A stretch of DNA of 62,922 nucleotides, the filler included, from Dirinaria sp. TL-2023a (lineage: Eukaryota): the NCBI GenBank assembly GCA_051941275.1. It is 45 parts of 45 records of this genome, joined end to end, with 100 filler letters (N's around TTAATTAATTAA, not from the genome) between each part and the next. Parts side by side here need not be neighbours in the genome. Positions count along the whole stretch, not along the records: positions 39,445 to 40,737 come from JAVEBF010002829.1; 44 more parts are not named here. The stretch is one strand, 5' to 3'. The notes beneath the pieces were generated by a model. It was not told the origin of the DNA, searched no databases, and saw only the letters and a program-made list of their open reading frames with translations. The translations under genes and the position numbers were made by a program. Below, piece by piece: positions 7,016 to 62,922 of this stretch; the first letter of the stretch is position 1; each line of letters opens with the position of its first letter.

Positions 7016-7115
7016 NNNNNNNNNNNNNNNNNNNNNNNNNNNNNNNNNNNNNNNNNNNNTTAATTAATTAANNNNNNNNNNNNNNNNNNNNNNNNNNNNN
7101 NNNNNNNNNNNNNNN

Positions 7116-7954: not shown

Positions 7955-7983
7955 GAAGATCAGTGCTCAGAAGAGAGAACAAA

Positions 7984-8395: not shown

Positions 8396-8535
8396 CGAGC
8401 TTTTTGTAATAATCGACAAAGAAATTGAATCATGCNNNNNNNNNNNNNNNNNNNNNNNNNNNNNNNNNNNNNNNNNNNNTTAATTAATTAANNNNNNNNN
8501 NNNNNNNNNNNNNNNNNNNNNNNNNNNNNNNNNNN

Positions 8536-9805: not shown

Positions 9806-9954
9806 GTATGCCTCCCATACACACACATATACATATATATATCCACCCCATCCCNNNNNNNNNNNNNNNNNNNNNNNNNNNNNNNNNNNNNNNNNNNNTT
9901 AATTAATTAANNNNNNNNNNNNNNNNNNNNNNNNNNNNNNNNNNNNNNNNNNNN

Positions 9955-11272
9955 CGTACTCGATTTGCTTGATTTGAGCTCATCGAAACTGATCTTGAAG
10001 AAACTCTCGAAATTCGAAGAGTTTTTCAGCGTACACGTCGACACGACGCATCTGTTTTCGAATCAACGATGTTGCGTTTTCTGAGAACGATGTAATTGAT
10101 TCGAGATTCGATTTTGAGAAATAGTCTTTGATAGCAGGAAACGAAACAACACTCGTGAATTCACTCTGATGACTGTTGATCTCAAACTCGACGATGACGA
10201 GATGATCGACTCAATTGTTTTGCGTATGATTGACATAGACTCGAAGATATTATTTAAGAACAGCGTTGACATTTTCGATCTGTTTATCAGTCTTCGAATG
10301 AAACGCTGTTGAAAGTTTGAGAGTCGTTCTCAGACGTGCACACAGACGACGTCAAAAATGAGCGATAAATTAACGTTCGCGATTCGAGATAATTGAGATA
10401 AAATAATTTTTCTCGCGTTAGACAAAATCAATAAAGACTTGAACTACTGACTCAACTTTCAAAAAATTCAGCGAAATGAACTTTTTTTTCTTTGAGAGTC
10501 TGTCAATCACAATCATGATATGTTGAAATCATTTTTCGTGACGTTCACAAATTGACAAAATAGTAACAAAGTCGCAGAAAATACTTCGTCAATAACGATC
10601 TGAAATTGATAATGATTTCAATAACTCGTGTTTAATTTTTCGATATGTTTTGATGCGACGACAGATGTGACAAATCTTAACATATTATTTCACGAATTTG
10701 ATCATGTTCGATTAATAATAGTGTGAATGCAGTAATTGATATGTATTTTCGCGTTCTGAATGTCTCGCGAAAAAAGAATCATACATTTGTTTAATGATCG
10801 TTGTGTATAAACTTTTCTTGTTTGAGACGTATAATCGTTTCTAATAATAGAGCATATCGTTGCGAATCTCACAATCTGATAATTGTAACTTGTATTCGAT
10901 TTGTCGCAAATCATGAGAAATTTTGCGAGTTTCTGAGATTTTGATTTTCATAATTCGTTGCAGATCATCGTTTTTTTTGTAAATTCTGCGAATTTTCTAT
11001 TTCAATTCGATTGTCGTGAGAATGTTCTCGAGTATCTCATTGTTCGAGTTTGTCGTTTGCTCAGACTGAGCATCGACTAAATCATTGTCAACTAAAACTC
11101 AAATGTTCTCGTTCGCGATGACGACGTCGTAAATCATCGATGTTAATTGAGTGACGATGCTAAAACTGTTCTCGAGCATGACGTAAACTAGATCGAGAGT
11201 TTTTGTCATCTCTGACTTCAGATTAGTTTTTTTAAGAATCGTTTTGTTTTGAAATTGACGTCTTGAATCATT
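9955..11272 (-). mobile_element. Degraded Gypsy integrase region
   Basis: IVIDRLSK and STAFHSKTDKQIENVNAVLK*YLRVYVN, a mutated HPQTDGQTERVN motif. Confidence 0.8.
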
Positions 11273-11662: not shown

Positions 11663-11793
11663 TGTTACGACCCTGGAAACACCTAAGTAGTAAGATAGAC
11701 ACCAAGTCCTTTGACTTGGTTTAGTTAGTCTTTTGGCGCTGCCGTGACTTTTATCATTGGGAAACCTATCTAACCAAGGTTGGGTCTTTGACA
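11663..11793 (+). mobile_element. Solo LTR, family A
   Basis: TGTTACG...TTTGACA with TSD AACTC on both sides. Confidence 0.93.
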
Positions 11794-12790: not shown

Positions 12791-14105
12791 AGAGCATTAT
12801 ATCATGCTTCTCGACAGCCTGAAAAGCTTGATGACGGAACTCAGAGAAGAAGCATGACGGAAAAATCAGCGTAAAAACAAGACCAAATCAAAAGAGACGC
12901 AATTTAATCATGACTCTGTCAATATGACACAATTCTCAAAGATGACAACAAGATCGCGTGAGCCAATATCAGCAATCGATCTTTCATTCTCAAAGCAACG
13001 ATCACGCTTAACGTCTAGATTGTTTCTTTCAAATACAATCGAGTCATCGACTGTTCTATCGAACAGTACTGTCACTGAATCAGTGAACGCTGTTGAGAAG
13101 GCATTCGAAACGTCTCATGTTGATCATGAGAACTTCGCGCTAAAGACTGAGGCAACATCAGCGAGAACGGACTCTGAGATGCTAGCCAGAGACCAACTGA
13201 AGCAAGAGATCGAACGCTGTAAAGAGGTCTATCGGGGGAAAAGCTTCATCGTCAACGGTGACGAACGCTCGAAGACTGTTTACTCTGACGAAATCAGTGC
13301 CTTTTTCTCCCGTTTTGAAGAAGGAACGTGGCTTAGTAATGCTAACTTGATGCCGTTGCTTTTCTCTTTCCAGTGGTCATCGACAACTCTAGTGTTGCAC
13401 AGCTCCTATATGTCATTTACAGCACCAAAAAATGGCAGTCAGTCGTTCAGTAACAGAGTACGTTGATCATTACGTCACGAACACGATCGCATTATTCTCT
13501 CATGCTGCAATGAAGCTCATTGAACGTTGTATGACGTAGATCTCGTCCGTAAATTAGTTCGGCATTATGACTTCCTGGCAGAAGATATTTCCAAATCAGA
13601 AGAAGTGGTATCCGCTATTAAAGAGCGTCTATCTCATGTCATGAAGAGATGAGAAGATTCAAATTTGAACTTTATCGTAGTCAGTGAGATAAGTGACATT
13701 TTCGTTCTTTTCTATGCTGTTTCGATCACTGAGAACTTGCAGACATCTTATCAGCAGCAGAACGATGACGATTGTGAGATTTACATGATATATAATGCTG
13801 ATTGTCTCGCCTCGAATCGAGACACACTAGAGAAGCGGATAGACGACGTTCAATTTCGATATCGTTACCTTCAACGCCTTCTCGAATTAGAACGTCAAGA
13901 GAGGAGTGAGCGGCAGATATTGAACATGATCCTTCCTCCTAACAAAACGCTTCGAATCAAGCGACGGTGAGTGCTCGAGAATATGTCAGATGATGAATCA
14001 GATCACGATCATCAAGAATCTCGAAAGAGTCGTAGAGTTGACTGAATATCTTCGTTTCATTTAGGTTCTCAAGATGCGTGAGTTGAGAAACGAAATCATC
14101 TGACC
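12791..14105 (+). pseudogene. Mutated Ulp1/C48 SUMO-protease gene
   Basis: GTWLSN...IILSCCNEAH*TLYDVD...RHYDFL...QQQNDDDCEIY gives the H-D-Q-C order of C48 peptidases; Trp codons are TGA; probable intron 13689-13742 with a mutated donor (ATAAGT). Confidence 0.8.
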
Positions 14106-14205
14106 NNNNNNNNNNNNNNNNNNNNNNNNNNNNNNNNNNNNNNNNNNNNTTAATTAATTAANNNNNNNNNNNNNNNNNNNNNNNNNNNNNNNNNNNNNNN
14201 NNNNN

Positions 14206-15520
14206 ACCACTTCCAGACGTCGAATGCCTATTTACCTGCGAATACTTCATTCTCTTCTTCTATGTGGACGATATCGCAGTTATATACTATCCTCGCGATA
14301 GTAAAAAGGTGGATGAGTTTGAGCAGAAGCTTTTCAAGACCTATGAAATGCGCCATATGAGTGAAATCGAATGATTCCTAGGCATACGAATTACACGCGA
14401 TAGGGAACGTCAGCAAATGTTCTTATGCCAAGACAGTTACATCGACAAACTCACTGTCAAATTCAATGTCAACACGTCTGCAAAACCGTCTGAAGCACCG
14501 CTGTCAAACTACATTACGCTGACCAAAAATAATGGTCAGACAACATCGCAGAAAATACTGACATATCAACAACGCATAGGTTCTATAAACTTTGCCGCAG
14601 TAACGACACGCCCAGATGTTGCTTTTGCAGCATCAAAACTTGCAGAGTTCCTTACAAACCCTTCGGAGCAACACATTGAACAGGCTAATAGGGTTCTAAG
14701 ATACTTAGCGCACACAAAGATCTATGTCATTGTCTTTGACGGCCAGGCAAGCAACATCGACACAATCTTTCTAGGGTCATCAGACGCCTCATTCGCCGAT
14801 GATGTTGACACACGTCAAAACTCAAACGGGTATTGCTTCAAACTCTTTGATGGCATGATCGACTCGAAGGCATTCAAACAGAAAACGGTTACCACTAGCT
14901 CTACCGAAGCAGAGCTGCTTGCCATGTCAATGTCAGGAAGCACTAAGATGTGGTGGGACCGATTCTTTGAAGCAATACAAATGAACATGGGAGAGCCTAC
15001 CTATATACAATGCGATAACCGCCAAACGATAAGGGCCTTCACCAAATCGGAGGCACATATGACTACAAAACTGCGCCATGTTGACATACATCGTCACTGG
15101 CTGCGTCAAGAAGTGCAAAAAGACAACATCAACATCGAATGAGTTTCAACAACGAAAATCCTAGCGGACGGCCTCACAAAGGCGTTGTCACCGCAACGAC
15201 ATCAAGAATTCCTAAAACTCATCGGGTTACGAGCCATACAACCTGAGGCACCTCCTAAAACAATAAAAGAGGAGAATAACAACATCGAGAACCATGTCAA
15301 CAAGGGCATAAACAAAGATGCAAATGACCCTGTGGATAAGGAGGCATAGGAGCACTCACTATGGTGATATGCTCCTAAAGGGGTGTGTAAAACCGAGACC
15401 GGGTGGACCGATTCGCCACCAAATGTGAAAAGTTGACGAAAACGGTTAGCCTCCGCAAGATGGCAGTCCTCGGAAACGCTAGTGCTCAGGTAATGGATAA
15501 TAGATATAGGCAGTGGCCCG
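14206..15520 (+). mobile_element. Ty1/Copia RT-RNase H, PPT and start of 3' LTR (~15386)
   Basis: FYVDDI, TRPDVAFA, SDASFADD, SSTEAEL, HVDIHRHWLRQ and ADGLTKAL motifs; two TGA stops at Trp sites; AAAGGGGTG before TGTAAAACC. Confidence 0.95.
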
Positions 15521-15818: not shown

Positions 15819-16276
15819 TGTCAAAGACCCAACCTTGGTTAGATAGGTTTCCCAATGGTAAAAGTCCCGGCAGCGCCAAAAGACTAACTAAACCAAGTCA
15901 AGGGACTTGGTGCCTATCTTACTACTTAGATGTTTCAGGGTCGTAACACTACTCGGATCCCTTTCTGAGCTTCGTCTCGAAGCTCAGCACTCAGGATGTG
16001 AGTAGGAGATTCGCCTTAAGTGAAAAGATTAAGTAGTCGCCTCGAGCTTAGATAAACTCTCAGTCACAAGTCCTCGCCGAAACAATTCTTTAAGCGTTCG
16101 GACGAAATCGAACTCAGAACTTTGCGATCGGATTGACTTGATTTAATGTCAAAGACTCAACCTTGATTAGATAGATTTCCCAATAATAAAAATCTCGGCA
16201 GCGCCAAAAGACTAACTAAATCAAGTCAAGGGACTTGATGCCTATCTTACTACTTAGGTGTTCCAGGGTCGTAATA
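15819..16276 (-). mobile_element. TRIM-1, short-internal subfamily (LTRs 15819-15948 and 16147-16276)
   Basis: Two 130-bp family A LTRs around a 198-bp non-coding internal region partly homologous to 27129-27383. Confidence 0.9.
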
Positions 16277-22576: not shown

Positions 22577-24081
22577 NNNNNNNNNNNNNNNNNNNNNNNN
22601 NNNNNNNNNNNNNNNNNNNNTTAATTAATTAANNNNNNNNNNNNNNNNNNNNNNNNNNNNNNNNNNNNNNNNNNNNTCGCTGGTGGTGGCCGTCAGCCAG
22701 CCGCCAATACTCCTCGGCTGCTGGCAAAGAATGAGAACAGGCACAGGCCAGAGAACAAAATAGAACTGACGGAATGGAGGCAAAAAAGCATGCTCGCTTG
22801 TTTTATCATCCTTTGAAGCTTTTGACCGAATAGACTTTCAAGTAAGTTCATCATGCTAATCTTCCACATGGTCCAGTTCGAATTGAGTGGTTAGACTTCG
22901 GAACCCAACTTTCTCTTCGATCAGAAACCAAACTGGTATTATGCGGACACGATGATCTATTCAATCTGATACATAGAATAAAATGTAATTGAGAGATGAG
23001 GGAGTCGTAAACACTCTCTCGAATGGAATATAAAGAAATAAGGTTGAGAAATCTGAGTCATGGCCAGAGCTAGAGAAACTTTCGAGAAACCTCGAAGATT
23101 ATCTGTCAATTACAATCTTGTGACCCTCGGAGCCCCATACTCTCCATTTCATGCTTTGGTAGCTTGCTCTGAAGTCTCGGCTTTCATGAGGTTCTTTTCT
23201 TTTTTGAAGAGGGTGTCTATTCTTTCTTTCTTTCTTTCTTTTGTTTAGATAACATTCGAAGCCAGCCTGATCTCAATGATAACTTGTTGGTTGGTTCAGA
23301 GCCTGTTTCTTCCTCTCTTCTGTTAGTGTATCCGTCAGCTGCTGACCTTTCGCATTCCATCCAATACTTGAGGGAGTCACGACTGCAAATGACCGGTATC
23401 TCTTTTGTATGCCAAGTAGGAACCTTTGCATATTTCGAAAGACAGGCTGGGCACTTTTCCCAAAATGTTCCTCAATGTCTTTGGATATGATTGCGCCATT
23501 GCGCATGCTCGAATTACGGTCTCTTTCTTTGCCAAAGTTCCGTTGTGTCCCAGCTTCCAAATTATGCTCTCGTACCCCATAAAGAAAAGGATGATGTGTG
23601 CGGTGACTCTCTAAGGCCGGACACTATACCATCGCTGTAATACAGCGGCTGTATCAGCATATGGTGACATATTGGGTAATTTCCCGCAAATCACTGCAAA
23701 GCTGTTATGTGACGCAATGCCCTTGGATGCCCGGACACAGGCAATTGTCTTCCTTTCAAGTGCGTTGCAGTGATCTGTCAGCGTTCGGATCAATTCTGTT
23801 CCGTTGAGAGAATCAAGAGAAGGATAAAAGTTATTGTCGATCGAGCGATTACTCGATATAAAAGATTCTTCTTCTGAGACTCTCAGATGATTTGATCGCG
23901 TCGATAATTGAGTCGGCGCAAATTTGACGTGAGTGATGCTCATGTCGAATCGCCTTTTTGTTATACGCTTGAATCGTAGTANNNNNNNNNNNNNNNNNNN
24001 NNNNNNNNNNNNNNNNNNNNNNNNNTTAATTAATTAANNNNNNNNNNNNNNNNNNNNNNNNNNNNNNNNNNNNNNNNNNNN

Positions 24082-25386
24082 GTTCCGCAGCAGCTACCGG
24101 GGCCGTGGGGAGGGGAGAAGTACAAGTGCGACAGAACCATGGCGATACCTTTCTCGAAACGCCCAGCAACCCGCCGGGCGCGAAGTATACATTGAAGCCG
24201 TTGAGCACGGTCATACCCTACGACCCGAATCTGAAACCATTCACGAGTACTGCGCAGACATTATCCACCACCAGCACCACGCGCAGGCACAAGCACTCCG
24301 GAGGATCCTTTCACACCTTCACCCCTGAATCGGTGGAAGAAACGCCGACAAAAGTCGTGACACGAACCCGAGTCCACGACTCCAACCGCACCTTACTCAC
24401 AACCCACTCTCCACCGAGGAGCAGCAGGACAGCAGCGGCAGTGGCATCGAGTCTCCAACCTTCCGCCAATGAGGCGCCAGTACACACCACCGATGAAGTC
24501 CACACCCACATCCCAACGGGCTCAGTCTCCAAGGACCCATCGATCCATTTCCACTCTCCTCCCACTGCTGCAACAACAACAACAGACCCCAAAGCCCCCG
24601 AAACGTCTGCGACGGGCCTGAATCCCACCTCTCCAATCCCAAACCCATTTCCTCCTCCCCATCCTCCTCCAGGGGCGGGCCCACATCCACCACTGCAAGC
24701 CGGCGGCAGCGGCCAAGGACATCATAACATGCACGCCGTACCCCACGCGACACTGCCCCGGATCCGAACATTCATCGACCGCGCGATCGGGCACGCGAAA
24801 GCGCATTTTTTCGGTCGGGTTCCCGTGGTCGCCCCGCCTTCTCCTCCTTCCTCAATCCAGCACCAGAAACCGGCACCTCCCGAAGCGCAAGGGATCTCAA
24901 GTCGGAGTAATAACAGTAAGAAAAGTAGTGGAAGTACCTTACGCCCCTCCACCGCCCTCGCAATCCTAGGCTTCATCCTCACAGTCGGCGTGCTGCTGAG
25001 CTGGACTTCGGCGGTCGCGGTCCCGTGGCCTCCTTCATCTTCGTCCTCTTCAGAAAAGCAGCATCAGAACCCAACTCTCACGCAGAGAGAAGTCGCTGCT
25101 GCATCTTCCGCAGCGCTGCGCGCCAGCGCATCCCTCCCCCCCCTCACACTCACATTCGCACTAGGGCTTTTCTTCATATTCGTAGATGCTGCTGCCGCTG
25201 CTTCTATATCACCCCCCTTGCTCATGACCTTCCTCTCCTCCCTTCCCGGGCCCGTATACGGCTGTCCTACCCCGCCGCAGGCGAAACCCTTTTCTTTTTC
25301 TGGAATTTTAGCGGGAAGGGGAGGAGGGGGGATGAGGTTATCGCTTGCTGCGATCGCGATCTCGATGATTGCGTTGGGGGTTTCGT
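24082..25386 (+). CDS. Hypothetical Pro/Ser/Thr-rich protein with hydrophobic segments, partial
   Basis: One frame is open across the whole contig; no recognisable domain. Confidence 0.5.
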
Positions 25387-25486
25387 NNNNNNNNNNNNNN
25401 NNNNNNNNNNNNNNNNNNNNNNNNNNNNNNTTAATTAATTAANNNNNNNNNNNNNNNNNNNNNNNNNNNNNNNNNNNNNNNNNNNN

Positions 25487-26889: not shown

Positions 26890-28188
26890 AGAAAATTATC
26901 ATCAGTCGAACAGAACTACGACATACACGATAAGAAACTGTTAGCTATCGTAACATTTTTAAAAATATGAAGAGTATATGCAGAAGAAGTATCTGAACTT
27001 TGTCAAAGACCCAACCTTGGTTAGATAGGTTTCCCAATGGTAAAAGTCCCGGCACCGCCAAAAGACTAACTAAACCAAGTCGGAGACTTGATGCCTTATC
27101 TTACTACTTATGTTCCAGGATCGTAACATTATCTCGGTCCCTCGGCTTAGCTTCGTCTCGAAGCTAACGTTGAGAGAAGTAAGAGAATTCAAGACTCTGT
27201 AAAGAATGCTAGCTAATCAGAGTGACTCATGACGCTCAGAAATCAATGTACGTCTATCGAAACAAGTAATCGCCTCGAGTTTAGATAAGCTCTCAGCCGA
27301 CAGACCTCGCCGAAAAACAATCTTTCAAACGTTCGGACTGAGATTCGAACTCAGAATCTTGCGACCGTGTTGACTTGGTTTAATGTCAAAGACTCAACCT
27401 TGATTAGATAGATTTCCCAATGGTAAAAGTCCCGGCACCGCCAAAAGACTAACTAAACCAAGTCGGAGACTTGGTACCTATCTTACTACTTATGTTCCAG
27501 GATCGTAACAAACTTGAAATATTAACGAATCATAAGAACTTACTGCATTTTACAACGACGAAGCAGTTAAATCGAAGACAAATCAGATGATCGAAATTTC
27601 TTAAACAATATAAATTTATTATACGATACACATCAGAAAAAAACAATAATAGAGCGAACGTATTAAATCGACGAAACGACTATATGAAAAACAAAACGAA
27701 GTTCAATCACAACATATTAAAATTAAATTAAGATAAATTATTATTGATAAACAAAAGACAAGAATTAAATGCGACACTGCGCATATTTCGAGACGATCAA
27801 AAATAGTATCTTATACAGAGAGAGAAATTACAGATATCGACAAACAAAATTAAAGATTGCATTAAGAAATATCACGATGAGTCACTGCAGAAACATTCGA
27901 GAATATTCAAAACATTACAGTTTTTACGACAGAATTGTCCGTTTTCACACATGAGACAAAAAATCGAGACATACGTTAAACGATATTTTAGCTGTCAAAA
28001 GAATAAGCATGCGACTCATGCTAAGTACGAAGAATTGTAGTATCAAGAATCATCAACGATATTATAAAACGAAATCACGATGAACTTTATCATCAAATTA
28101 TCGAGATCAAAAAATTCAGCGACGAGAGAAATTTATGACTTTATATTGATAGTTGTGAATAAATTAACGAAGTACTCACATATTATAC
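26890..28188 (+). mobile_element. Degraded Gypsy RNase H-integrase, interrupted by TRIM-1
   Basis: EQNYDIHDKKLLAIV...EL|EILTNHKNL...LNRRQIR*; ITMNFIIKL...IVVNKLTKYSH. The frame is restored when the insert and one TSD are removed. Confidence 0.9.
27001..27510 (-). mobile_element. Complete TRIM-1 (510 bp)
   Basis: LTRs 27001-27128 and 27384-27510, 255-bp non-coding internal region, TSD AACTT. Confidence 0.96.
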
Positions 28189-28288
28189 NNNNNNNNNNNN
28201 NNNNNNNNNNNNNNNNNNNNNNNNNNNNNNNNTTAATTAATTAANNNNNNNNNNNNNNNNNNNNNNNNNNNNNNNNNNNNNNNNNNNN

Positions 28289-29026
28289 CGTCGTCGAATC
28301 GACGAATTCAGACAAGAGATCGTTATTTAGCTGACGATTCTCTTCTTTCAGATCTCGCAATCGTTGTTGATTTCGTAACAGCTGATTTTGAGATTCTAAA
28401 TCATGAATGCGTTGAGCGAGCTCATTTCGTAAGATATTCGAGCTGTTGTTTGACTCAGCGTCGTTTGATAAAGTCGCGGCGACGAGAAACGAGCGATCGC
28501 TCGAAACGATTTCAAAATCGTTTTTCGATTGTTGAGACTCTGACATTTCACGCGAAAACGTCATCACTATTACACTTCGGGCCTTTTTCTTCAAAAGATT
28601 GAAGTGATTAGAACTGTAAAATCGTATGCGTCGATTATTCGTCGACGCAGTACTTGTGTGAAAGACGTGACAGTGTAATAGATTATATGACTATCTCATA
28701 CTGTAGTTTCTGCTAGAACTAATCACTAAGAATTTCTCTCGAAAGAGTGAGTGATTCTCTATACTTAATCGCGAGCGTTAACATTGTCTCATCATGACGA
28801 GCCTCGCGCTGACGAATCACGAGCGCTCGTAGACACAATGCTTTATAAGCGTCAATCGCTCACTGATTTCTAGTTAATCTCGAGATTCAATCTTTCGACG
28901 CTGACTTCTAGACGGCGCTAGTCATGCTTCAGACCTCGAAGGATTGCCTCTGAGCACTCTCGGCTGCCAAGCGGCGCTAGTCTGCATTGGTCAATATATA
29001 TCAATATATCAGATATCACTGTTACA
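28289..29026 (-). mobile_element. Family D 5' LTR (28615-29026), PBS and gag start
   Basis: Same AGTGATTAGAAC|TGTAA junction as at 21504-21520; homologous gag N-terminus. Confidence 0.85.
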
Positions 29027-29587
29027 ACAAGATGCAAATGCAAGCAGAGAAATAAGATTCAAAAAAGATTTATCTCACATTCAGTGCTATGATTGTCATG
29101 AGTATGGGCATTATTTTATCAATTGCTCTCACAATCTCAACCCGCGGAAGTCTAAATCGATAACTGCAGCAGTTAACTCTGCTTCAGCAGATGACGATGA
29201 AGAGAAACAAATCTTTTCAGTTTCTGCTCGTTGTCTGCTCGTTGATGAAGAAGAACAAGGGCAGAAAGTATCAGTTATGACGACTATTAAGAAGAGCAAG
29301 CAACGAGAAGCAGCTCAAGCACTTTTCAGCAGAGCATCGAAGATGCTTCAACGATCACGCGAAGTTCAAATGACTAGACAATCAAAGCTTTATAACTCAT
29401 CACAGTTGTCTCAACATCTACTTGATCAAATAGCGAAGTACAACGAAAGTCAACGCGTTAATCGTCAAGATCACTCGACTGATCAGAGTGATTTTTATGA
29501 AGCATTCGATGATGAAAATCGAGTGAAAGAGATAGTTATGAAAGATAGCTCATCTACTCAATCGATGTCAGAGTCTCGCTCATCTCA
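29027..29587 (+). mobile_element. Gag zinc-knuckle fragment (host of the D insertion)
   Basis: CYDCHEYGHYFINC fits C-x2-C-x4-H-x4-C. Confidence 0.8.
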
Positions 29588-29687
29588 NNNNNNNNNNNNN
29601 NNNNNNNNNNNNNNNNNNNNNNNNNNNNNNNTTAATTAATTAANNNNNNNNNNNNNNNNNNNNNNNNNNNNNNNNNNNNNNNNNNNN

Positions 29688-30983
29688 AGCTATTGATAAA
29701 AGAAATTATCTAAACTATTGATTTTAAAAATCAGCGTTTAGAAGAGAAGATAATTGTAATAATGATATTGAGTCATCGATATATATTAATCAATGCGAAC
29801 TAACGTCGCTAAAACGCAAACTGTCAAGGACAATGTATATTCTGAAGTTGCGTATGAGAATTAACGTCGTCAAGACGTCAATTTTCGAAATTAAAACTTA
29901 AAACTGAACGCGCGTCAGTAGATCGCGAGCGTCTAAAGATTGTTGCATCTATTGATTCTTTTGTTATTTAACGCGAGATTAATCGTGATGAAAATTCATG
30001 ATGAGATTCTGATTGATTTCGCAGTTGAGTATAGAGAATCACTCATCTTTTATGAGAACTTTTTAGTGATTAGTTCTAGCAAGAACTATAGTCTAGATAG
30101 CAAGCATCTAAGTCTATTACACTATTACATCTTTCATATATCTAAGTATTTAGTCGACTCGTAATCATCGGATCGTATCTTACACTCACACAGCTCACGC
30201 AACTGTCGATTTCTTCAGTATCGTTTTAAGATTGTGCGTTCGAATCTACATTTTATACTATCAAGCGACGACGATCGTTTTAAGCTTCAACGTCGCTAAT
30301 CTCAGTCGAAACGTCTTTATCATGATCACGATATTTTCTACTGCTAGCTTCGAATCTTCATCAGCATAATATCATCTAAATTCTTCTTCACGACTCGTTT
30401 TCTACGCTCTCTCTCAATCGTCGTTTTCTCATTCACGTTTCATCGAAGTCTCTATATTTTGTCGCTGCTTTTTAGTATATTTCAGTTGACATCTGATTGA
30501 CGCTTTGACTCGCTTTCTAACTCATTTGACATAATCACTTGTTTGTGACAAGTAGTGAGCAATCGATATGACTATGAATACGACTCTAACGACACGAAGT
30601 TATGACTAAAGCTGTGCTTCTCGCGACAAAAATCAATTAAACAAGTGCTACACGTTCGTGAGCAAATTTCAATTTGCTGCGTTGTCGTGTTACGTCCGCT
30701 ACTATCATCTAGAATAAGATTCTAATATAAGACTAGAGTTTGATTTGTTGAAGAGATCTGTCAAGATACAACGAATATCTGTTGATGATATGACAATTAT
30801 TACACAAGATAAGATACTTAGTACTTGTAGCAGTAGTAAACAAGTTAACTAAAGATTGAACACGATATTAGAAGAATGTAAGGGAATCACAGCATCTAGA
30901 GCAAGAAGACATGATGTTTAAGTACTATGACTATGTACGAGAATACCAGACATGAGGGAGAAAGATACTATAGATATCTGAAG
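29688..30983. mobile_element. Degraded LTR remnants (D-related ~29750-30184; C in reverse from ~30688)
   Basis: TTAGTGATTAGTTCTAGC of LTR-D at ~30063; reverse-complement match to the LTR-C 3' half. Confidence 0.65.
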
Positions 30984-35265: not shown

Positions 35266-35950
35266 AATGAGACGCACAAATATTCACTATCAAATCAACT
35301 GATGTGTGAATCTGTCGTCAGAGCAGCATTGATTCGTAAACAAGCTCGCACTGAATGACAAAAAAAGTGAAAGAAAGACATCAACGAGACTCATTATCGC
35401 GCGTTGACATCGACGATAACTCATCGTCACATGCGACTTCACGATGAACGAATAAAATCACACAGTGCGCTACTCACACAACTGAGAACGAGCAAAATAA
35501 ACTTCAATCAATTTTTGAACGAACGACGCGTTCTCGAAGTGATCACAGAAATCTGCGATTGCGAACAAGATCGCATGACGATCAGACATGTGCTATTAAC
35601 ATGTTCTATATGAAGACAAGAGAAACTGAAGATGCAACGAAGAACAAACAACATCACAGATGTGAGAAAGCTACTTGACAGCATCGCTGACGTCACAACA
35701 GCGATACGAATAATTTTATTCACTGATCTACTCAGTCAGTTTCAGACAATCGCTCTCTCTTCGAATTCTTAGACTCATAGAGTTCTCGCATGAAGAATTT
35801 TCTAATATTACGAATAGAGAATAACTGCTTGTATTATAGAGAAAGTCGACGCTGCATCAACGCAGCATTGATATAGTCATATAGATCTCGCATAGACCTC
35901 TCGTGAATGTTAAATCGAGTAAGAATTAAAAAAAAAAAAAAAAAAAAAAA
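35266..35950 (+). mobile_element. LINE 3' end with zinc finger and poly(A) tail
   Basis: LTQLRTSKINFNQFL...CDCEQDRMTIRHVLLTC; A-run at ~35928-35950. Confidence 0.88.
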
Positions 35951-36047: not shown

Positions 36048-36558
36048 TGTAAGACGACTAGTCAGGTAATAGTGTAACTACCCTTACTTGGATCAAAAGA
36101 TCACAGTAATTACTCCTACTGGAATAATTAGCTACTATTACCACCTATATCCTAGAGTGCTGCTCATGCGTTCGGGACCCCCAACCAGCGCCGCATGACA
36201 ACTATCCCCCCTCTCAGAAACCGCGTCCTCGAGATTCACTAAAGAGTCTTGTCTCAGAGGCGACTGACGACACTTTCTTTAGTCACGATAGAATATAGAC
36301 AGACTTTCAAGAGCGACACCATTATGAGCTGTGATGGTTCTAAGAAAATTTTAAAGAATTTTACCAGCGGGGGTTCGAACCCGCCAACTTAGAAAACATC
36401 GTTACCCAGTAGAAATAATTACTCTGTAAGACGGCTAGTCAGATAATAATGTAACTACCCTTACTTGAATCAAAAGATCACAGTAATTATTTCTACTGGA
36501 ATAATTAGCTACTATTATCACCTATATTCTAGAGTGCTGCTCATGCGTTCGGGATCCC
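36048..36558 (-). mobile_element. TRIM-2, a second miniature LTR family (LTR 36048-36200, internal 36201-36424, LTR 36425 to contig edge)
   Basis: 153-bp TG...CA direct repeat; minus-strand PPT GAGAGGGGGGATAGT; 18-nt self-complementary PBS; no ORF. Confidence 0.88.
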
Positions 36559-36704: not shown

Positions 36705-37809
36705 GAGATTGAGAAAATTGTGAAACAGCGAAATCAGAAATATCTGATTAGGTGAAGAGAATGATCTACGAAAGATAACACGTGAAAATTATTTAGAAAT
36801 TTTGAAAACTGCTCAGAGACATTTCGAGAGTTTCGTCAGCGTCAGAGAGATCGCGAAAAAACTCGTCAATGATTTAAGTGTTTCATACGAAACTCGAGAG
36901 CGTAAAAAACTTGAGAAACGAAATCTTTTGTTTTATCTGGTCTTCTTTTTCTTCGATCTCAAAAATGTTTTTCGACTCGACGTTACTCAAATCTTTTAAT
37001 CGACGCAATCAATACTTTCGTTGTTTTTTTTTTACGAGTCAACTTAAGACGAATCTCGAGAATCTCGTCGTTCAGTTTCTCAGCATTCTTTATAATCTGA
37101 TTCATACTTTCGAAATCGAGAGCAAGATCGCATTTTCGATTCTTGCGATAATATTTTTCACATTTGAGAAACTGACGATTCATTTTACATGAGACGTCAT
37201 AAAAAATACAACACTGATAAAAACGCATGACGAATTGTGCAAAACAGTAACGACGATCGACGATGAGATTACGACGTTGAGTGAACGAGAGATTGAAAAA
37301 CATGATAAAAGAATAAATTTCGAGAACGAAATTTAGAGAAAAAAGAAATGATGTTACGACTCTGTGCTGAGACATATCTTATGTATGAAATTCTGAAACA
37401 CAGATACGTATCATGATCAAGATTATCAGAACTTTTAAGACTTAAACGAGCTAGCGAAAATCACGTGAGCAGATCAATAGAATTAAGATGATCAGAGTTT
37501 GAGCAGTTTAATATAGCTTGAGCAGATCAAAAGAATCAAAATAATTAGAGCTTGAGCAGCTTGATGTAACTTGAGTATTTAGCGCGAAAGAATCAGTATA
37601 TAAATCTTCAACACGACGTTTTTCTGACATCGTGTTCAACATCTTTGCAATAATCATTTACTGCTCAGTGTAACTTGTATCTTGTTGTGATACTTGCTTT
37701 ATCACGTTGACACTCGTTGTTCTAAGACTTGAATCTCTTCGAACAGATTAAACTCTAGCATCTTATATTAGACATCTGAAACCCTAGATTAATAGTAGAA
37801 GACGCAACA
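36705..37809 (+). mobile_element. Chromovirus 3' end: chromodomain, antisense ORF, PPT, LTR-C (37352-37809)
   Basis: EIEKIVKQRNQKYLIR*RE*STKDNT*K is a chromodomain with TGA at Trp; purine tract before TGTTACG. Confidence 0.85.
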
Positions 37810-38229
37810 TAATTCAGAGATTCAAATTGAAAAACTCGATATAATGATAAAAAATTGAAAAAACGAAAGAAATAATGTGATAATAACAAATTCATTATGA
37901 TTACGCGTAACAAACGCATCGATTTCAATTTTATATTTATTTCAATTTTTTNNNNNNNNNNNNNNNNNNNNNNNNNNNNNNNNNNNNNNNNNNNNTTAAT
38001 TAATTAANNNNNNNNNNNNNNNNNNNNNNNNNNNNNNNNNNNNNNNNNNNNAAGCGCTTTCCCACCCACCCACTCCAGATATCGGTCGCATAGGTAGAGG
38101 GAGTTGTTGGCGCTAGGGGCAGCATGTTTTAAGGTCGTGTTTTCGTTTGCTTGCTTGCTAGATAGACGCCTCTGGCGCCGACGAGGCCCAAATCCAGTTC
38201 ACTCGTTTGTGCCTATATTTGCTAGTCCC

Positions 38230-39343
38230 ATGAGGCATCGAAAGCACTTCGCTGTGATTTATCTTTATGCGATAGTTTGAGAAACAGAGACGCATCATGA
38301 TCAAGAAGACGTATCTTTTTGACTTTTGAACTTGATGATCACGTGATCAGTTCAAGTAGTTCAAGAGAATCTGATGTTTAGACATCTTGATCAGTTCAAA
38401 TAGTTTAAGAGAATCTGATGCTTGAATATCTTGAGCACTTAGCGTAGAAAGATTACTATATAGATCTTCAACACGACGCTTTTTTGACATCGTGTTCAAT
38501 CTCAGTTAACTTGTTTAGTACTGTTACAAGTATTAAGTATCTATCTTGTGTGATACTTGCCCTATCACGTTGACACTCGTTGCTTCTGAACTGAATCTCT
38601 CCAACAGACCAAACTCTAGCATCTCTTATTAGATACCTGGAAACCTAGATTGATAGTAGAAGACGCAACACAGATATGAGGGGGAAAGTAGTCTATGAGT
38701 GCTGAGGAACCTATATATAGGCATTAGTGATAACACTAGTGATCTAGGTGTTGAACCCCTGAACCCCTAACACTAGTGATCTAGGTGTAGAGGACCCCTA
38801 AACCCCTAAACACGAGTATTGAATTCTAAACCCGTGACATCATCTCCTTTTTTAGAATCGAGGCTCCGACGATGATTCTAGAAACTTGATTTTCTAACAA
38901 TTGCACTTTGTAAATCGCATGTTGTTGACTCATAGAAAGCTTTCGCGATAAAATATGAGATATCTTTTGTAGTCGATTTGCTGTGTGATATGAGATGTTT
39001 TTTGTAGTAAACTTATTGTATGATATGTTTCTTCAAATTCGACACTTCTACGATGATTTTAAAAATCGTCATCGTCATCGTCGTCGTCGTCGTCGTCGAT
39101 GCTATTGTCGTCATAGATATCGTTTCTCGTTTCGTTCTATAGATATTCTTTTTTTTTATTTGAATACTCTTTCTCGTTGTTCGAGTCTTGCTTATTTTCT
39201 TGATCTGAATGCTCTTTCTCATATTGATTTTTTTCTTTTGAGATAGCTCTCTCATCGCTCGACTTTTCTTTCTCGTTTGAATCTTTCTCATCTTTTGAGT
39301 ATTTCTCTTCTTCTAAGTATTCTGACTCATCGTTTAAGTAGTT
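38230..39343. mobile_element. LTR-C copy (ending 38670) next to another LTR (ending 38839) with PPT and degraded internal region
   Basis: GACGCAACA end; AAACCCGTGACA end shared with LTR-F; pyrimidine tract after 38839. Left boundary approximate. Confidence 0.65.
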
Positions 39344-39444
39344 CNNNNNNNNNNNNNNNNNNNNNNNNNNNNNNNNNNNNNNNNNNNNTTAATTAATTAA
39401 NNNNNNNNNNNNNNNNNNNNNNNNNNNNNNNNNNNNNNNNNNNN

Positions 39445-39934
39445 TTAGATAGGTTTCCCAATGGTAAAAGTCCCGGCACGGCCAAAAGACGAACTAAACC
39501 AAGTCAGCGACTTGGTGCCTATCTTACTACTTATGTTCCAGGATCGTAACATTACCCCGGTCCCTCGGCCTAGCTTCGTCCCGAAGCTAGCGTTGAGAGA
39601 AATGAGAGGGATTCAAGACCCTGTAGAGAGTGCTAGCTAACCAGAGTGACTCATGACGCTCAGGAATCAATGTACGCCTATCGGAACAAGTAATCGCCCC
39701 GAGCTTAGATAAGCTCTCAGCCGACAGGCCTCGCCGAAAAACAACCCTTCAAGCGTCCGGGCTGAGATTCGAACTCAGAACCTTGCGACCGTGTTGACTT
39801 GGTTTAATGTCAAAGACCCAACCTTGATTAGATAGGTTTCCCAATGGTAAAAGTCCCGGCACGGCCAAAAGACTAACTAAACCAAGTCAGCGACTTGGTG
39901 CCTATCTTACTACTTATGTTCCAGGATCGTAACA
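39445..39934 (-). mobile_element. TRIM-1, least-mutated copy (left LTR cut by contig edge)
   Basis: LTR end 39551, internal 39552-39807, LTR 39808-39934; colinear with 27001-27510. Confidence 0.94.
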
Positions 39935-40737
39935 GTTTAAAACATGGTCTCTTCGTCAATTGAAAAATTAACGATGAAAAAAATCCGAGTTTTTGTTATC
40001 GATGCTCGAGAATTTAATATTTGTTTAAATATCGTGATCTTATATCGTAAATCTTTTTATTATGAGATTTTTAATCTTGCAATTGCTTGATTTACTCGTG
40101 CAACGTCGACGAGTGCAAAGATAAAAATAATAAATAATGTAATATCAGAGTCTGCACAGCACTCAATGACATATGAGTACAATAAACTAAAACACTATTT
40201 ATGAAAAAGAAAAGAAAAGAAAATTTATTTATAAACAGATTTATTTGTGAAATCGAAACAACATCGACTCGAGAACGCTAAATTTAATCAGACAAAAACA
40301 CAACATCTTTAACAAAGTATTTGATATAGACCTTTCCGCACACATATGTGATATTCAGAGGCTCTGCTTCAAGATTCAGGAGATCATTTGATCTAGTCAT
40401 GTGATTAGGTTCATAAGGGTCTGAATCATAACATCTTCAAAGAAACATTTTATATAATTTTTTCAAAAATCATTTTTTGAGACAACGTTAACTGACTCTG
40501 AAAAATTCTTATTGACTTGACAAATCTTCGAAGGAATCTTGTTCTAACAGTAACGAGGACGTTGTTTGTTGGAGAAAGAGGATAGTGTTACGAGTATGTA
40601 TTTGGACTTGGTAGATTTGGTGTGGTGGTACTAGTTTTACCCTATTGGATATAGGGTCCCGGGTGGTCAGTCGGCCCGCCTTAGGGTCCCAATACACACA
40701 CAACTATTTAGGCCCCCTATTGTATCTAGCTTTCCTT
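39935..40737. mobile_element. Degraded family E 5' end, and a B-related 3' LTR starting at 40586 after a PPT
   Basis: 40080-40210 aligns to 25822-25950; GGAGAAAGAGGATAG|TGTTACGAG. Confidence 0.7.
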
Positions 40738-45014: not shown

Positions 45015-45081
45015 AGTCTTTTGGCGCTGCCGGGACTTTTACCATTGGGAAACCTATCTAACCAAGGTTGGGTCTTTGACA
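45015..45081 (+). mobile_element. Partial LTR-A in the family D 3' internal region
   Basis: Ends GGGTCTTTGACA; the following sequence matches 7867 onward. Confidence 0.88.
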
Positions 45082-49247: not shown

Positions 49248-50016
49248 TTGTCGCTCACACAGCATCGTTTCTCGAATTTTGAACAATATCGACAAAGACG
49301 CATTACGATGACGCTGTTTTTTAAAAAATGAACGCGAGCACGACGACGAATGAAAAAAAACATAGAGATCATGTTCTCGAAACGAGAACTTGAGAGAGAG
49401 AAAATGATATTACGAGTCAGACTGACGTGATTTTATATACGCACTCAGTCGAATCAGAAAACATGTTAAATCGATGTTTATGACGTCAAAATTATTGAGC
49501 AGTGACTGATAAAGCTCGACATTATGAGCAGAGTGAGCAGCGACTCATGAAACTCGACATGATGAGCAGAATGAGCAGAGATGCTTAAGATGCTCAGACA
49601 ATTGAGTTTCATGATGCTCAGAGTGTTACGACCCTGGAACGCCTAAGTAGTAAGATAGGCACCAAGTCCCTTGACTTGGTTTAGTTAGTCTTTTGGCGCT
49701 GCCGGGACTTTTACCATTGGGAAACCTATCTAACCAAGGTTGGGTCTTTGACACAGAGTACTTAGATGATTGAGCATCGTGAGCATAAGAGATCTCATTG
49801 TATATATAGATCTTCAACACGACGTTTTTTTAGCATCGTGTTCAACATCTTTGCAATAGCTATTTACTGCTCAGAGTAACTTGTATCTTGTTATAATATT
49901 GTTATATTATCTCGAAGACATTCGTTGTTTCTTGACAGATCTCTTCAACAGATCAAACCCTAGCATCTTTTCTGTTTAGGACCTAATCCTAGATATTAGA
50001 TCGATAGGACGCAACA
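49248..50016 (+). mobile_element. Chromovirus 3' end: antisense ORF start, PPT, LTR-C (49408-50016) holding solo LTR-A (49624-49753)
   Basis: GAGAGAGAGAAAATGA purine tract; TSD CAGAG around LTR-A; the right flank continues as LTR-B (50017-50220). Confidence 0.88.
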
Positions 50017-53345: not shown

Positions 53346-53969
53346 ATCGTAATGCGTCTCTGTCGATATTGTTCAAAATTCGAGAAACGATGCTGTGTGA
53401 GCGACGATGCGAAAAAATGCGTCGAATGTATTCGTCAGACAATCTCGTGCGATCTGATCTCTCTTAACGTGACGAAATGAAAAAGATTGAAAATGTTAGA
53501 ATCGATGCAGAGCAAGTCAATGCAGATATAGTTAACTAAGAATATTATCACTAAGAAAGAAAAGAAGAAGAAGAGAAGCTAGATACAATGAGGATTTCAG
53601 ATATATACGCGTGCGGATGTCGCGTATCCCGATCGAGTTAGCGCATTATCTCTGAGAATTCTGAGAGATGTTGCCTCAGATAATATATCAGATGCATGCT
53701 CGTAACAGAAAACACAACGAAGAAAGTTGAAACAAGAGCTGCGCGAGACATATGTCAAACAGCAACGTCTGATGAAACAGCTTAATCTGATTGAAGAGCA
53801 ACAACAGATGATAGTCAAGAATGAATATCGAAATATCGCGACGTTAAAGAATAAAAAGAAAACGATTCAAAGAAATTTTATCTTTGATTTTTTCGAGATG
53901 TCTGCTTCAGATTCTCTGATTGACGTCGCGTCGAAGCAATTAATTTTTCTCGATTTTGATGACAATTGA
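53346..53969 (+). pseudogene. Zn(II)2Cys6 + coiled-coil ORF antisense to a chromovirus, split by solo LTR-B (53494-53707, TSD GAAAA)
   Basis: CRYCSKFEKRCCVSDDAKKCVECIRQTISC fits C-x2-C-x6-C-x8-C-x2-C-x6-C. Confidence 0.8.
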
Positions 53970-53989
53970 TCGTTTATCTCTCTTGCTCT

Positions 53990-54632
53990 CTTTAATAAAA
54001 TTCTCACAAAAGATTCTGACAGTTTTTAAGATTCTTAAATGATTTTCACGTGTTGTTTTTCGTAGATCATTCTTTTTATTTAACAAAATATTTCTGATCT
54101 CTCTGTTTCAGTATTTTTTCGATTTCGAATTCGTTTTTCTTTTGTGATTCGAAAGAAAAGATGTTCTGTATAAACGTACTGAGATCGACTGATTTTAATA
54201 ACGATATATGAAATACATTGTAAATTCGTGCGTTTTTTAACAATTTCAGTTCAAACGTTATCGATTCTTTGACTCGTTTAATGAAAAATGATCCGATCTT
54301 AACATGATTAAGTTTTTTGCTTGATTTTCTAATTTTTAGATTTTTGATCAACAAATAGATTTTATCTCTTTTTTTCAGTTGAGATGTCATTTTTCTTTTT
54401 TTGTTTTGATAACAGAATGATCGATTCTGCATTTTAACGATGTTTTCATGTATTTTTCTAAATGTTTCGACTCTTTTTTTCGTCGCATTCGTAAACACGT
54501 TTGTTTTCTGATGTTCGAATAAATCTGATTCTCTGTCATAATTCGCAAAGAATGAAATCGTTTTCGTAATATCGAAATGCTTTGAGTTGAGTGTCAATTG
54601 TATCATAAATAACAACGATATTCAATTACTAT
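53990..54632 (-). mobile_element. Degraded Gypsy integrase C-terminus and chromodomain
   Basis: SKKLNHVKIGSF (GPF motif), VFHISLLK, EFEIEKILKQRDQKYFVK. Confidence 0.9.
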
Positions 54633-59710: not shown

Positions 59711-59957
59711 ACGGACAAGTCCAAGGACGATTCCAAGGACAAGAGTGCGGCTGGTCCCGTACCACTTGATCCACAAAAAGTGCAGAGCCCCATGTTCCTA
59801 CAGAAGGAGGAGGAGCTGTACGGAGACAGCAAAGACCCCAGATCCGAAGACGGACAAGTCTACGGACGAGTCCAAGGACAAGAGTGCGGCTGGTCCCGTA
59901 CTGCTTGATCCAAAAAAGGGGAGAGCCCCAAGTTCCTACAGAAGGAGGAAGAGCTGG
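59711..59957 (+). repeat. Imperfect direct repeat (~108-bp unit, 139-bp period)
   Basis: TCCAAGGACAAGAGTGCGGCTGGTCCCGTAC...GTTCCTACAGAAGGAGGA occurs twice. Confidence 0.85.
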
Positions 59958-60800: not shown

Positions 60801-61645
60801 TAGCAAGCGAGGTCAGTTACCACGAGGACTACGCAGACGATGCTCCGTGCGACGCTCCTGAGGCCAAATTCCCCTAAAGCCATCACATATAGTAACTCAC
60901 AATTCCTCGCTTTTCTTATAGATGTGAGGCAATTAATCACACACATACAAACTGCCAAACATAGATATAATTGACCTCACAAACATCTTCTAAATCTGAC
61001 AGTTATGAGCTCGAATGACGTTTAAATGCTATCTACAATCACACTACACTTAAAGAGTACTGCATAGTTTAGTACTTCCTTGCTCACACGTATACCATCT
61101 ACACTATTTACATCATCATTTACATATCAAGGGTACTGCACTTTCCGATACTATCTTACCCAAACGCACACTCACATTAGTGTTTACACCATACTGCACT
61201 ATCTGCACTTCCTTCCCCCTACACGACTTGCATTTACCTCACCTACGATGTCAGAAATCAAAAGGAAAGTCAAATTGAGCTCTCAAAAGGATTGAGATGT
61301 CTGATTTGTCATAGTTAGGGCAAAAGCTATTGAATATCGAATATGGCCCCTCATCAACGCCGCAACAGTATCAAAGTCAATTGAGAGCATCAGATCTATC
61401 GAGTCGATATTGAATGATATGCGGAGCGCCGACTTCAATGAAAAGAACATCCGCTATAATCATGCTCAGATCAGGTTCAAAAGGGATCTCAAAACCTGAA
61501 AAGAAGAGAAAGAAGCAATGAGCAAAATGATAAGCTATATATACGNNNNNNNNNNNNNNNNNNNNNNNNNNNNNNNNNNNNNNNNNNNNTTAATTAATTA
61601 ANNNNNNNNNNNNNNNNNNNNNNNNNNNNNNNNNNNNNNNNNNNN

Positions 61646-62456
61646 TTCGTCGAAAATGTCGATGAACGATATCGAAGAATTTATTTATTCACTGCTCATC
61701 GAGAAAAACGCTTCAATCACAGAACGAGAGATAATAAAAGCAATACACAAAACGACGTTTGATAAAATTTCGAGAATCAATGAGATCACGAACAGAGCGT
61801 TAAGACAGTTTGCACGCGTCGTTTTGACACAAATAAAATCACTGTTCGAGAGATGCATTCAAAAAAGTGTTCAATCGACGCATTTCAAAAAAATCGTCAT
61901 CATAATATTGCGGAAATCGAACAAAAAAAACTACACAGATTTCTCAGTATATAAATCTATAACTTTTCTCGACACACTAAGCAAGACACTAAAATTTATT
62001 ATCTCGAAACGTCTACGTTACGTCGTCGAGAAACAGAGCACATTATCGAATACGCAGATGAGAATTAAAAAACATCGATGAATGAACACAGCATTACAGC
62101 TCATAACGAAACAAATGCATACGATATGAAACGAAAACAAGAAACGCGTGACATCATTAATAAATCTGAACGTTTTCGAAGCATTCGATAACGTACCGCA
62201 CGTCAGATTGTTTCACAATATGCGTAAACGAAAGATATCGACACGTCTGTTGACATGAGTGAAAGATTTTCTGAAAAAACGTCGAATCACACTGATTATT
62301 GACGATTACACACAAGCGAAACGTCAAATGACAGTTGAAATATCTCAAAAATCTTCGCTCTCATCGATACTCTATCTGTTCTATAACGCAGATTTACTTA
62401 AAATGTGCGACGACATACGATTTCGAACTAGTGTTACAAAATTTGTCGACGATATC
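61646..62456 (+). mobile_element. Degraded LINE (Tad1-like) reverse transcriptase
   Basis: YKSITFLDTLSK, LNVFEAFDNV, EISQKSSLSSILYLFY (from GIPQGSPLSPILY), FVDDI. Confidence 0.93.
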
Positions 62457-62922
62457 TGTAAGGTCGTATGCGCCGGTTACTCGTCGACGCAGTACTGGTG
62501 TGAAAGACGTGACAGTGTAATAGATTATATGACTATCTGATACTGTAGTTTCTGCTAGAACTAATCACTAAGAATCCTCTTCGAAAGAGTGAGTGATTCT
62601 CTATACTTAATCGCGAGCGTCCACATTGCCTCATCATGACGAGCCCCGCGCTGACGAGTCACGAGCGCTCGTAGACACAATGCTTTATAAGCGTCAATCG
62701 CTCACTGATTTCTAGTTAATCTCGAGATTCAATCTTTCGACGCTGACTTCTAGACGACGCTAGTCATGTTTCATATCTCGAAGAATTGTCTCTGAGCACT
62801 CTCGACTGTCAAGCGACGCTAGTCTGCATTGATCAATATATATCAATATATTAAATATCACTGTTATATTTGTTCTCTCTTTTGAGCACTGATCTTCAGT
62901 GCATTTGCGACTTATTTGAAGC
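62457..62922 (-). mobile_element. Family D 3' LTR (62457-62868) plus PPT/internal region, inserted just after the LINE FVDD codons
   Basis: Colinear with 28615-29026 and with the reverse complement of 7929-8395. Confidence 0.92.

Follow-up and report, generated by a model that had tools for sequence, protein, structure and literature searches.

Repeat-induced point mutation (RIP), as described for Neurospora crassa and most Pezizomycotina, depends on RID and turns CpA into TpA. Other contexts of C-to-T change are on record for fungal transposable elements (TEs), in which Amselem et al (2015) distinguish CpA, CpT, and CpG signatures (PMC4352252). A CpT bias is reported for Magnaporthe oryzae and Botrytis cinerea T4, and as a secondary preference for Sclerotinia and Parastagonospora, and is attributed to RID/Masc1-class enzymes (PMC4352252; PMC2621366), a motif of RID being connected with the bias towards CpT by Amselem et al (2015); CpG or TpCpG hypermutation is reported for Microbotryum, rusts, and Tuber, and CpG together with CpA for Aspergillus (PMC4352252). 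The paper presenting RIPCAL defines a CpC index, its reported results being dominance of CpA and, in some cases, CpT (PMC2621366). According to a k-mer survey of 1,239 genomes published in 2025, RIP-like defences share the preference for CpA, and for Lecanoromycetes it gives 0/130 strong-signature species (PMC12543289). Homologues of RID and DIM-2, along with strong RIP, are described in a genome paper on a Lecanoromycete (PMC12542154); lichen genome papers use GC content or RIPper, and their passages on this subject give no mutation context. Here, we describe C-to-T mutation of transposon copies in a window of 62,922 nucleotides from Dirinaria sp. TL-2023a (assembly GCA_051941275.1; 45 parts joined end to end, positions counted along the whole window), in which the dinucleotide lost is CpC. 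No published report of a CpC-dominant signature was found in a full-text literature search covering article texts.

The kind of change is that of canonical RIP. C:G to T:A changes predominate, are restricted to repeats and TE relics with sharp edges, affect both strands, arise after integration, and destroy coding capacity, which bears out the RIP-like character proposed in a preliminary description of this DNA; the hallmark that failed is conversion of CpA to TpA. In contrast to canonical RIP, CpC is the target, CpA is mutated 3- to 10-fold less, TpA is not enriched (observed/expected ratio [O/E] 0.57), CA/TG is not depleted (O/E 1.07), and the classical indices are negative. GC content stops at 30–40%, whereas TE-derived sequence of Cladonia has a local GC peak near 16% (PMC12542154). 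CpT-biased RIP shares with the present case the pyrimidine after the target cytosine; there, CpT is mutated along with CpA, and CpC goes unreported in the sections of those papers dealing with context, whereas here CpC exceeds CpT and CpA is minor. The CpG-type hypermutation, likewise a species-specific C>T context in TEs, differs in that CpG is the least mutated context here (0/36 and 35/193 sites in the two data sets below) and is retained at an O/E of 1.87. The kind of mutation is known, but its CpC context appears to be new. We consider it probable that a RIP-like, repeat-directed C-to-T process has acted on this DNA, with the 5′ C of CpC as its target and CpT as a weak second.

Context of C-to-T changes in repeat copies

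Two copies of one small long terminal repeat (LTR) retroelement resembling terminal-repeat retrotransposons in miniature (TRIM) have their ∼255-nt interiors at 39552–39807 and 27129–27383, intervals that the preliminary description had singled out and placed correctly. The LTRs measure 128 nt and are bounded by TG...CA; the interior is without coding capacity. Aligned over 491 columns, LTRs included, the two copies differ at 37 positions, of which 27 are transitions with C or G in the copy at 39552–39807 (the reference copy) and T or A in the other (the hypermutated copy); 14 of these are C>T and 13 are G>A. Only three transitions run in the reverse direction, and five transversions and two indels make up the remainder. 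The 27 forward transitions fall on CpC (18), CpT (7), and CpA (2), and none on CpG. In the interiors alone, 23 of 25 differences are forward transitions, one is a reverse transition and one is an indel (direction 23:1, binomial p=3e-6), where about 20 had been counted by eye, and the four examples cited at the time (ACCCC>ATCTC, AACCA>AATCA, CAGGA>CAGAA, and GAGCT>GAGTT) were all recovered from the alignment. Related to the sites available in the less-mutated copy, the interior rates were 15/33 for CpC, 7/43 for CpT, 1/23 for CpA, and 0/36 for CpG (Fisher's test, CpC vs the rest p=4.8e-6; CpT vs CpA plus CpG p=0.009); 45% of the CpC sites had mutated at a background divergence near 1%. The proposed move from CpA to CpC (1/23 vs 15/33), as well as the survival of CpG and most CpA, thus holds in this pair. 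The claim that the target comprises CpC and CpT stands for CpC only in full; the CpT part was overstated, its rate being about one-third of that of CpC in lightly mutated copies and CT/AG being undepleted at saturation (O/E 0.97).

By self-BLAST, 38 intervals of the window, together 9,254 nt, are repeated; they were aligned as nine families. Against a majority consensus, which presumes no direction, the changes per copy-site in the LTR family were 22/197 at CpC, 5/135 at CpA, 6/168 at CpT, and 0/58 at CpG, and those in another family (family C) were 31/162, 2/128, 4/138, and 1/85, respectively. The LTR family carried 33 C>T plus G>A changes versus five T>C plus A>G; there were also 21 transversions, many of which are subfamily markers. 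When a consensus restoring C/G was used for all nine families, the C/T-polymorphic share was 0.69 for CpC (152/221), 0.35 for CpT (105/302), 0.32 for CpA (75/233), and 0.18 for CpG (35/193), that is, CpC about twofold above CpT or CpA and about fourfold above CpG (chi-square p=7e-27 for the difference between contexts); this consensus presumes the direction of change and may somewhat inflate CpC where families are most diverged, which makes the majority consensus and the pair the cleaner sources of evidence. Irrespective of the data set (pair, LTR family, family C, or nine-family pool), the normalised rate of CpA was well below that of CpC. The 5′ neighbour had little effect (ApC 0.43, CpC 0.45, GpC 0.29, and TpC 0.37). 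Isolated CC sites had ended as TC in 154 cases, as CT in 55, and as TT in 18, with 218 intact; because TC outnumbers CT to this extent, the 5′ C of CC is the target. A direct repeat pair at 36048–36181 and 36425–36558 (family F; 134 nt, 93% identical, 243 nt between them), which may represent the LTRs of another tiny element, has nine differences, seven at CpC and two at CpT. Separately, a pair of tandem ∼108-nt units at 59711–59956 (family G; 91% identical), located in a region of normal CC content, has few differences and these are without CpC bias (CpC 0/18).

The copies of the LTR element differ in mutational load, and so do the LTRs within one copy. Those of the reference copy differ at 1/107 positions, a near-identity from which this copy is probably a recent insertion. 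In the third, internally deleted copy, the 3′ LTR (16147–16276) departs from the family consensus by 10 C>T/G>A changes (CpC 7, CpA 2, CpT 1), and the 5′ LTR (15819–15948) by two. Such a 10-to-2 split within one element, together with the unlike LTRs of the hypermutated copy, shows that the mutations were acquired after integration. Solo LTRs have 0–3 C>T/G>A changes apiece; with regard to length, the solo LTRs of 130 nt thus stand at 0–3 changes and LTRs of full elements at up to 10, in a small sample of 10 LTRs. The reference copy contains 64 CC/GG within 39452–39946 (∼500 nt), with none in 38867–39451 or 39986–40330, and the hypermutated copy is likewise flanked by CC/GG-depleted relics. 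From this arrangement, we read at least these two copies as later insertions into relics that were already mutated and free of CC.

The window contains 10 LTR units of this family, and matching 5-bp target-site duplications were present in four of five testable copies, three solo LTRs among them. Short TG..CA LTRs, a non-coding interior of less than 1 kb, 5-bp target-site duplications, and solo LTRs are features of TRIM and other small non-autonomous LTR retrotransposons; unlike in TRIM elements, neither a primer-binding site nor a polypurine tract was clearly recognisable. Within the interior of the reference copy, 39690–39800 holds GAGATTCGAACTCAGAACC, the reverse complement of which resembles a tRNA T-arm by eye. 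This tRNA-like look was not borne out by ARAGORN or Rfam, neither of which gave a match. A degenerate 34-nt LTR pattern had no match among the metagenome contigs.

Depleted transposon relics and single-copy controls

Loss of CC/GG was then quantified over the window as O/E in 90 half-blocks of ∼650 nt. Paired runs of 44 N mask the window about every 1.4 kb; tract sizes are given in unmasked nucleotides. The distribution was bimodal, with 24 half-blocks below 0.3 (15 of which were below 0.1) and 53 at or above 0.7. In the 19 depleted tracts (14,009 nt, GC 0.19–0.43), 40 CC/GG were observed where 812 were expected (O/E 0.05; ∼95% lost). The other O/E values in these tracts were 1.58 for TC/GA, 1.87 for CG (760 observed vs 406 expected), 1.07 for CA/TG, 0.97 for CT/AG, and 0.57 for TA, in agreement with the earlier remark that degraded TEs throughout the window lack CC/GG and keep CpG. 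The longest CC/GG-free run within one unmasked block was 1,134 nt, compared with no more than 325 nt for every other dinucleotide class. CC/GG-free runs of at least 150 nt summed to 16,644 nt; 200 shuffles preserving local base composition gave 85 nt on average and 499 nt at most. Tract edges are abrupt and adjoin genes, the last CC/GG before a tract lying, for example, at 4155, 9853, 35158, and 53229. Repeat families B and D have copies within depleted tracts.

Pfam searches on 60 read-through frames returned Integrase_H2C2, RVT_2, one DUF3723, and one weak HALZ below the Pfam cutoff, most saturated relics being unrecognisable; the Pfam scan covered roughly one third of the six-frame space. 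The integrase match (E=1.1e-11; zinc-binding domain of Gypsy-type integrases) was obtained on the read-through frame 9956–11272, minus strand, and the 182 codons of this relic include seven in-frame stops (four TGA, three TAA, and no TAG) and a single Pro, and lack both Gly and Trp. At saturation, loss of CC/GG removes all codons for Pro (CCN), Gly (GGN), and Trp (TGG), with Trp giving way to TGA, Pro to Ser, and Gly to Asp or Glu. DNA free of CC/GG can therefore not encode these three residues, so that proteins are inactivated at a moderate GC content and the relics are not visible as AT-rich isochores. Conversion of Trp to TGA rather than TAG, as claimed before, was seen wherever it was checked: in the stop at 15140 of a Copia-type element, in the integrase relic, and in the depleted tracts as a whole (TGA plus TCA 865, TAG plus CTA 231). 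At 62337–62366, where replacements of Pro and Gly had been cited, the translation reads EISQKSSLSS and lies inside the RVT_1 relic; in a weak alignment with an R2 reverse transcriptase (E 0.15), its E, K, S, and S face G, G, P, and P. The stops in the integrase and reverse transcriptase relics sit on the mutated state, which supports the direction C>T. The Copia-type element itself (12791–15519; RVT_2 at 14207–15520, plus strand) has a CC index of 0.13–0.23 over 12791–14104, 0.45 over 14206–14862, and 0.91 over 14863–15519, and retains an open frame of 255 codons; by these values, mutation seems to end part-way through it.

The bias seen in repeats was absent from single-copy DNA, be it genes, AT-rich unique DNA, or the substitution spectrum of Vps5. 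CC/GG O/E was 0.98 for the pooled genes of the window and 0.89 for Vps5, compared with 0.77–0.93 in nine orthologues. Because 12 half-blocks with a GC content below 0.42 keep a CC/GG O/E of at least 0.7, low GC alone is not the cause of the signature. The substitution spectrum comes from aligning the Vps5 block to contigs of a relative with ∼94% identity (public run X1); a second run (X2) covers 9/30 bins. Both runs are considered to stem from relatives, as they contain just 7–8% of the words sampled from the Vps5 block. Among the 40 listed of 70 differences, C/T transitions numbered 5 at CpA, 4 at CpC, 11 at CpG, and 9 at CpT, at availabilities of 97, 95, 90, and 97, respectively. The window had C/G where the relative had T/A at 31 positions, and the reverse was found at 19.

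As a negative control, 80 Vps5-centred metagenome loci were used (884,193 nt), a gene-dense set that is uninformative on the transposons of relatives. CC/GG-free runs did not exceed 144 nt in them, the (CC+GG)/(TC+GA) ratio stayed at or above 0.25 in all 3,408 windows (500 nt each), and low-GC or RIP-like windows occurred in four of the 80 loci (L025, L026, L027, and L070). A context spectrum from the 80 loci was dropped, as Vps5 alone aligns, at 66–77% DNA identity, which was judged too diverged.

The preliminary description had also expected that indices of the TpA/ApT type would underestimate the mutation. With the classical thresholds for RIPper, as quoted in PMC7882544 (product >1.15, substrate ≤0.75, composite >0), none of the 24 depleted half-blocks passed for product, substrate, or composite, and such indices indeed miss the signature. 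A classical CpA-type RIP tract was present at 751–1750 of L070, beside the Vps5 gene (70% identical) of another fungus from a lichen metagenome, and served as the positive control. Its values (TpA/ApT 1.8–2.0, substrate index 0.04–0.12, CC index 0.5–0.6) are the opposite of those of the window tracts.

Candidate mechanism and competing explanations

In this window, cytosines in the duplex DNA of integrated transposon copies have been converted to thymine on both strands. The attack falls overwhelmingly on the 5′ C of CpC (CpC>TpC, and GpG>GpA on the opposite strand), with CpA and CpG almost spared, and at saturation every CC/GG is gone, GC content having dropped just to 30–40% and CpG, CpA, and a low level of TpA remaining. 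The agent may be an enzyme of the cytosine methyltransferase family, of the RID/Masc1 or DIM-2 type, that acts premeiotically on recognised repeats and whose flanking-base preference would be shifted to C-pyrimidine. A RID/DIM-2-type process is plausible for this lineage of Pezizomycotina because homologues of both are reported from a Lecanoromycete genome (PMC12542154).

A different history, which we regard as unlikely, is that heterochromatin-directed, DIM-2-type methylation of TEs at C-pyrimidine was followed by slow deamination of 5-methylcytosine, with neither duplication sensing nor a premeiotic burst. It would produce the same compartment specificity and affect both strands, and the methylation by Neurospora DIM-2, which is mostly non-CG with a preference for CpT according to a 2026 review (PMC13297926), suits the order of pyrimidines after C better than does the CpA of RID. 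The interleaving of C>T and G>A in the hypermutated copy would fit gradual decay as well. Such decay is hard to reconcile with one copy having 27 changes and its sister at most three, with just five transversions and two indels between them, or with LTRs of one element that differ 10 to 2; nor does it readily account for ∼95% loss of CC/GG (40 of 812 expected left) with CpG untouched. A one-sided burst of 27 versus three changes, accompanied by just seven other differences, argues for episodic hypermutation over clock-like decay. Deamination that follows methylation of one selected copy is a possible alternative. Decay through CpG methylation and deamination was rejected, since tract CpG stands at an O/E of 1.87 and is not depleted. 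It is distinctly improbable, too, that a cytosine deaminase unrelated to RID and DIM-2 (AID/APOBEC-like, or a toxin-type deaminase of double-strand DNA) with an intrinsic preference for CpC is directed at repeats or TEs. The context is indeed unlike every RID-associated signature in Amselem et al (2015) (CpA and CpT; PMC4352252), and a review table lists RID catalysis as undetected in vitro (PMC13297926), but scans of the window, which covered part of the six-frame space, contained no such gene. Editing of retroelement cDNA of the APOBEC type, which is strand-asymmetric and leaves identical LTRs, is excluded because the strands were hit equally and the two LTRs of an element disagree; the cytosine that mutates is, moreover, the 5′ C of CC.

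Since the CC pair is a dipyrimidine and lichens receive UV, a mutational bias of the whole genome, for example UV damage at dipyrimidines under exposure to the sun, might be visible only where selection is absent; TC/GA is mildly high outside the tracts too (O/E 1.19). TpC is the main UV target, yet it accumulates (O/E 1.58) rather than disappearing; CC/GG is normal in AT-rich unique DNA, the copies differ 27:3, the synonymous differences in Vps5 show no excess of CpC, and comparator loci with a similar TC/GA O/E (1.08–1.20) have not lost CC. This explanation is largely refuted, and we give it hardly any credence. An artefact of assembly or base calling at modified cytosines in TE DNA would be favoured by the coverage of independent reads, which come from relatives and are confined to the Vps5 block. 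Both strands are almost fully converted over 14 kb, the copies of one family show graded states within the same assembly, and indels, transversions, and TAA stops occur in the relics as well, all of which makes such an artefact very improbable.

Several observations nevertheless weigh against a RIP-like process with repeat recognition. The strand pattern of the hypermutated copy is interleaved, with ∼17 strand runs compared with ∼14.5 expected (by eye), and hence without clustering, whereas a single round of RIP in Neurospora gives single-strand runs, none of which is seen here. Few mutations are present in the reference copy and the solo LTRs, which fits a threshold of length or age but also any slow process. 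For most saturated tracts, a second copy is missing from the window, and repeat status follows from TE relics or family membership for some tracts only. The substitution control provided by Vps5 is small (29 transitions, 40 listed of 70 differences) and consists of coding sequence, and the whole evidence base is one 63-kb window.

A stronger version, which we put forward tentatively and hold to be possible rather than probable, is that lichen-forming fungi of this lineage possess a distinct genome defence, based on a DIM-2-type pathway or on a RID whose flanking-base pocket has been re-tuned, by which the 5′ C of every CpC in repeats is mutated to completion. In that case, a whole clade that CpA-based indices score as RIP-poor would in fact be heavily defended, and the flanking preference of RIP would be an evolvable property of the enzyme, which could be mapped by comparing the methyltransferases with those of Neurospora. 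A near-complete, CpC-dominant signature would, if real, supply the fourth dinucleotide beside CpA, CpT, and CpG, and a naturally occurring variant in specificity with which to ask what enzyme, and what residues, set the context of RIP. For practical purposes, tools built on CpA/TpA (RIPper thresholds and default RIPCAL indices) can overlook heavy mutation of repeats, which bears on claims that RIP has been lost.

Features of the window and its neighbourhood

The host is a lichen-forming ascomycete, as its Vps5 protein is 93–94% identical to proteins from lichen-forming Lecanoromycetes; the top named match is a metagenome-assembled genome (MAG) of Heterodermia aff. obscurata (94%), and many Teloschistales MAGs rank next. 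Besides Vps5, the scan for protein domains in the window identified Spo11, an ankyrin protein, an F-box protein, a sacsin-like protein, WD40 proteins, and BOP1. The positions of the repeat copies, relic tracts, and control gene are given in Table 1.

Table 1. Repeat copies, depleted relics, and the single-copy control in the window (sizes in unmasked nucleotides).
Position	Strand	Feature	Remarks
39552–39807	+	Near-unmutated TRIM-like copy, interior (reference state)	LTRs 39445–39551 (5′ end masked) and 39808–39934
27001–27510	+	Hypermutated TRIM-like copy	LTR 27001–27128, interior 27129–27383, LTR 27384–27510; target-site duplication AACTT
15819–16276	+	Third TRIM-like copy, internal deletion	5′ LTR 15819–15948 near-intact; 3′ LTR 16147–16276 hypermutated; matching target-site duplication not found
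66–197	+	Solo LTR, TRIM-like family	Target-site duplication ATTCT
11663–11793	-	Solo LTR, TRIM-like family	
49624–49753	-	Solo LTR, TRIM-like family	
45015–45081	-	Solo LTR, TRIM-like family	Cut by mask
4291–8072		Largest depleted relic tract	3,606 nt, GC 0.32, 12 CC/GG; includes family B copy 7116–8396
9999–11240	-	Depleted Gypsy-type integrase relic	1 CC/GG in 1,242 nt; 69 CpG in 1,148-nt CC/GG-free run
27616–28797		Depleted relic flanking hypermutated TRIM-like copy	5 CC/GG in 1,094 nt
29292–30806		Depleted relic flanking hypermutated TRIM-like copy	3 CC/GG in 1,427 nt
35295–35940, 36836–37912		Depleted tracts	CC-normal stretch between, holding the 134-nt repeat pair
38982–39313, 40052–40258		CC/GG-free relic (span 38982–40258)	Interrupted by the reference TRIM-like copy
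53367–54607	-	Depleted relic, Tf2-type integrase SH3 domain	PF24626 on 54079–54621; 1 CC/GG in 865 nt
61625–62426	+	Depleted reverse transcriptase relic	RVT_1 E=1.1e-10 at 61902–62501
8536–9853	+	Vps5 gene block; single-copy control	Normal CC/GG; depleted tract on either side

An open frame of 470 codons with a GC content of 0.59 is located at 24030–25439 and had no Pfam match. Apart from Vps5, the genes of the window did not align to the Lecanoromycete-like comparator loci (L001–L023; Vps5 84–93% identical). The 20-kb Vps5 neighbourhoods of these loci have a GC content of 0.49–0.55, and no low-GC or RIP-like flag fell on any of their 500-nt windows. Vps5 in the window has transposon relics on both flanks (4291–11240).

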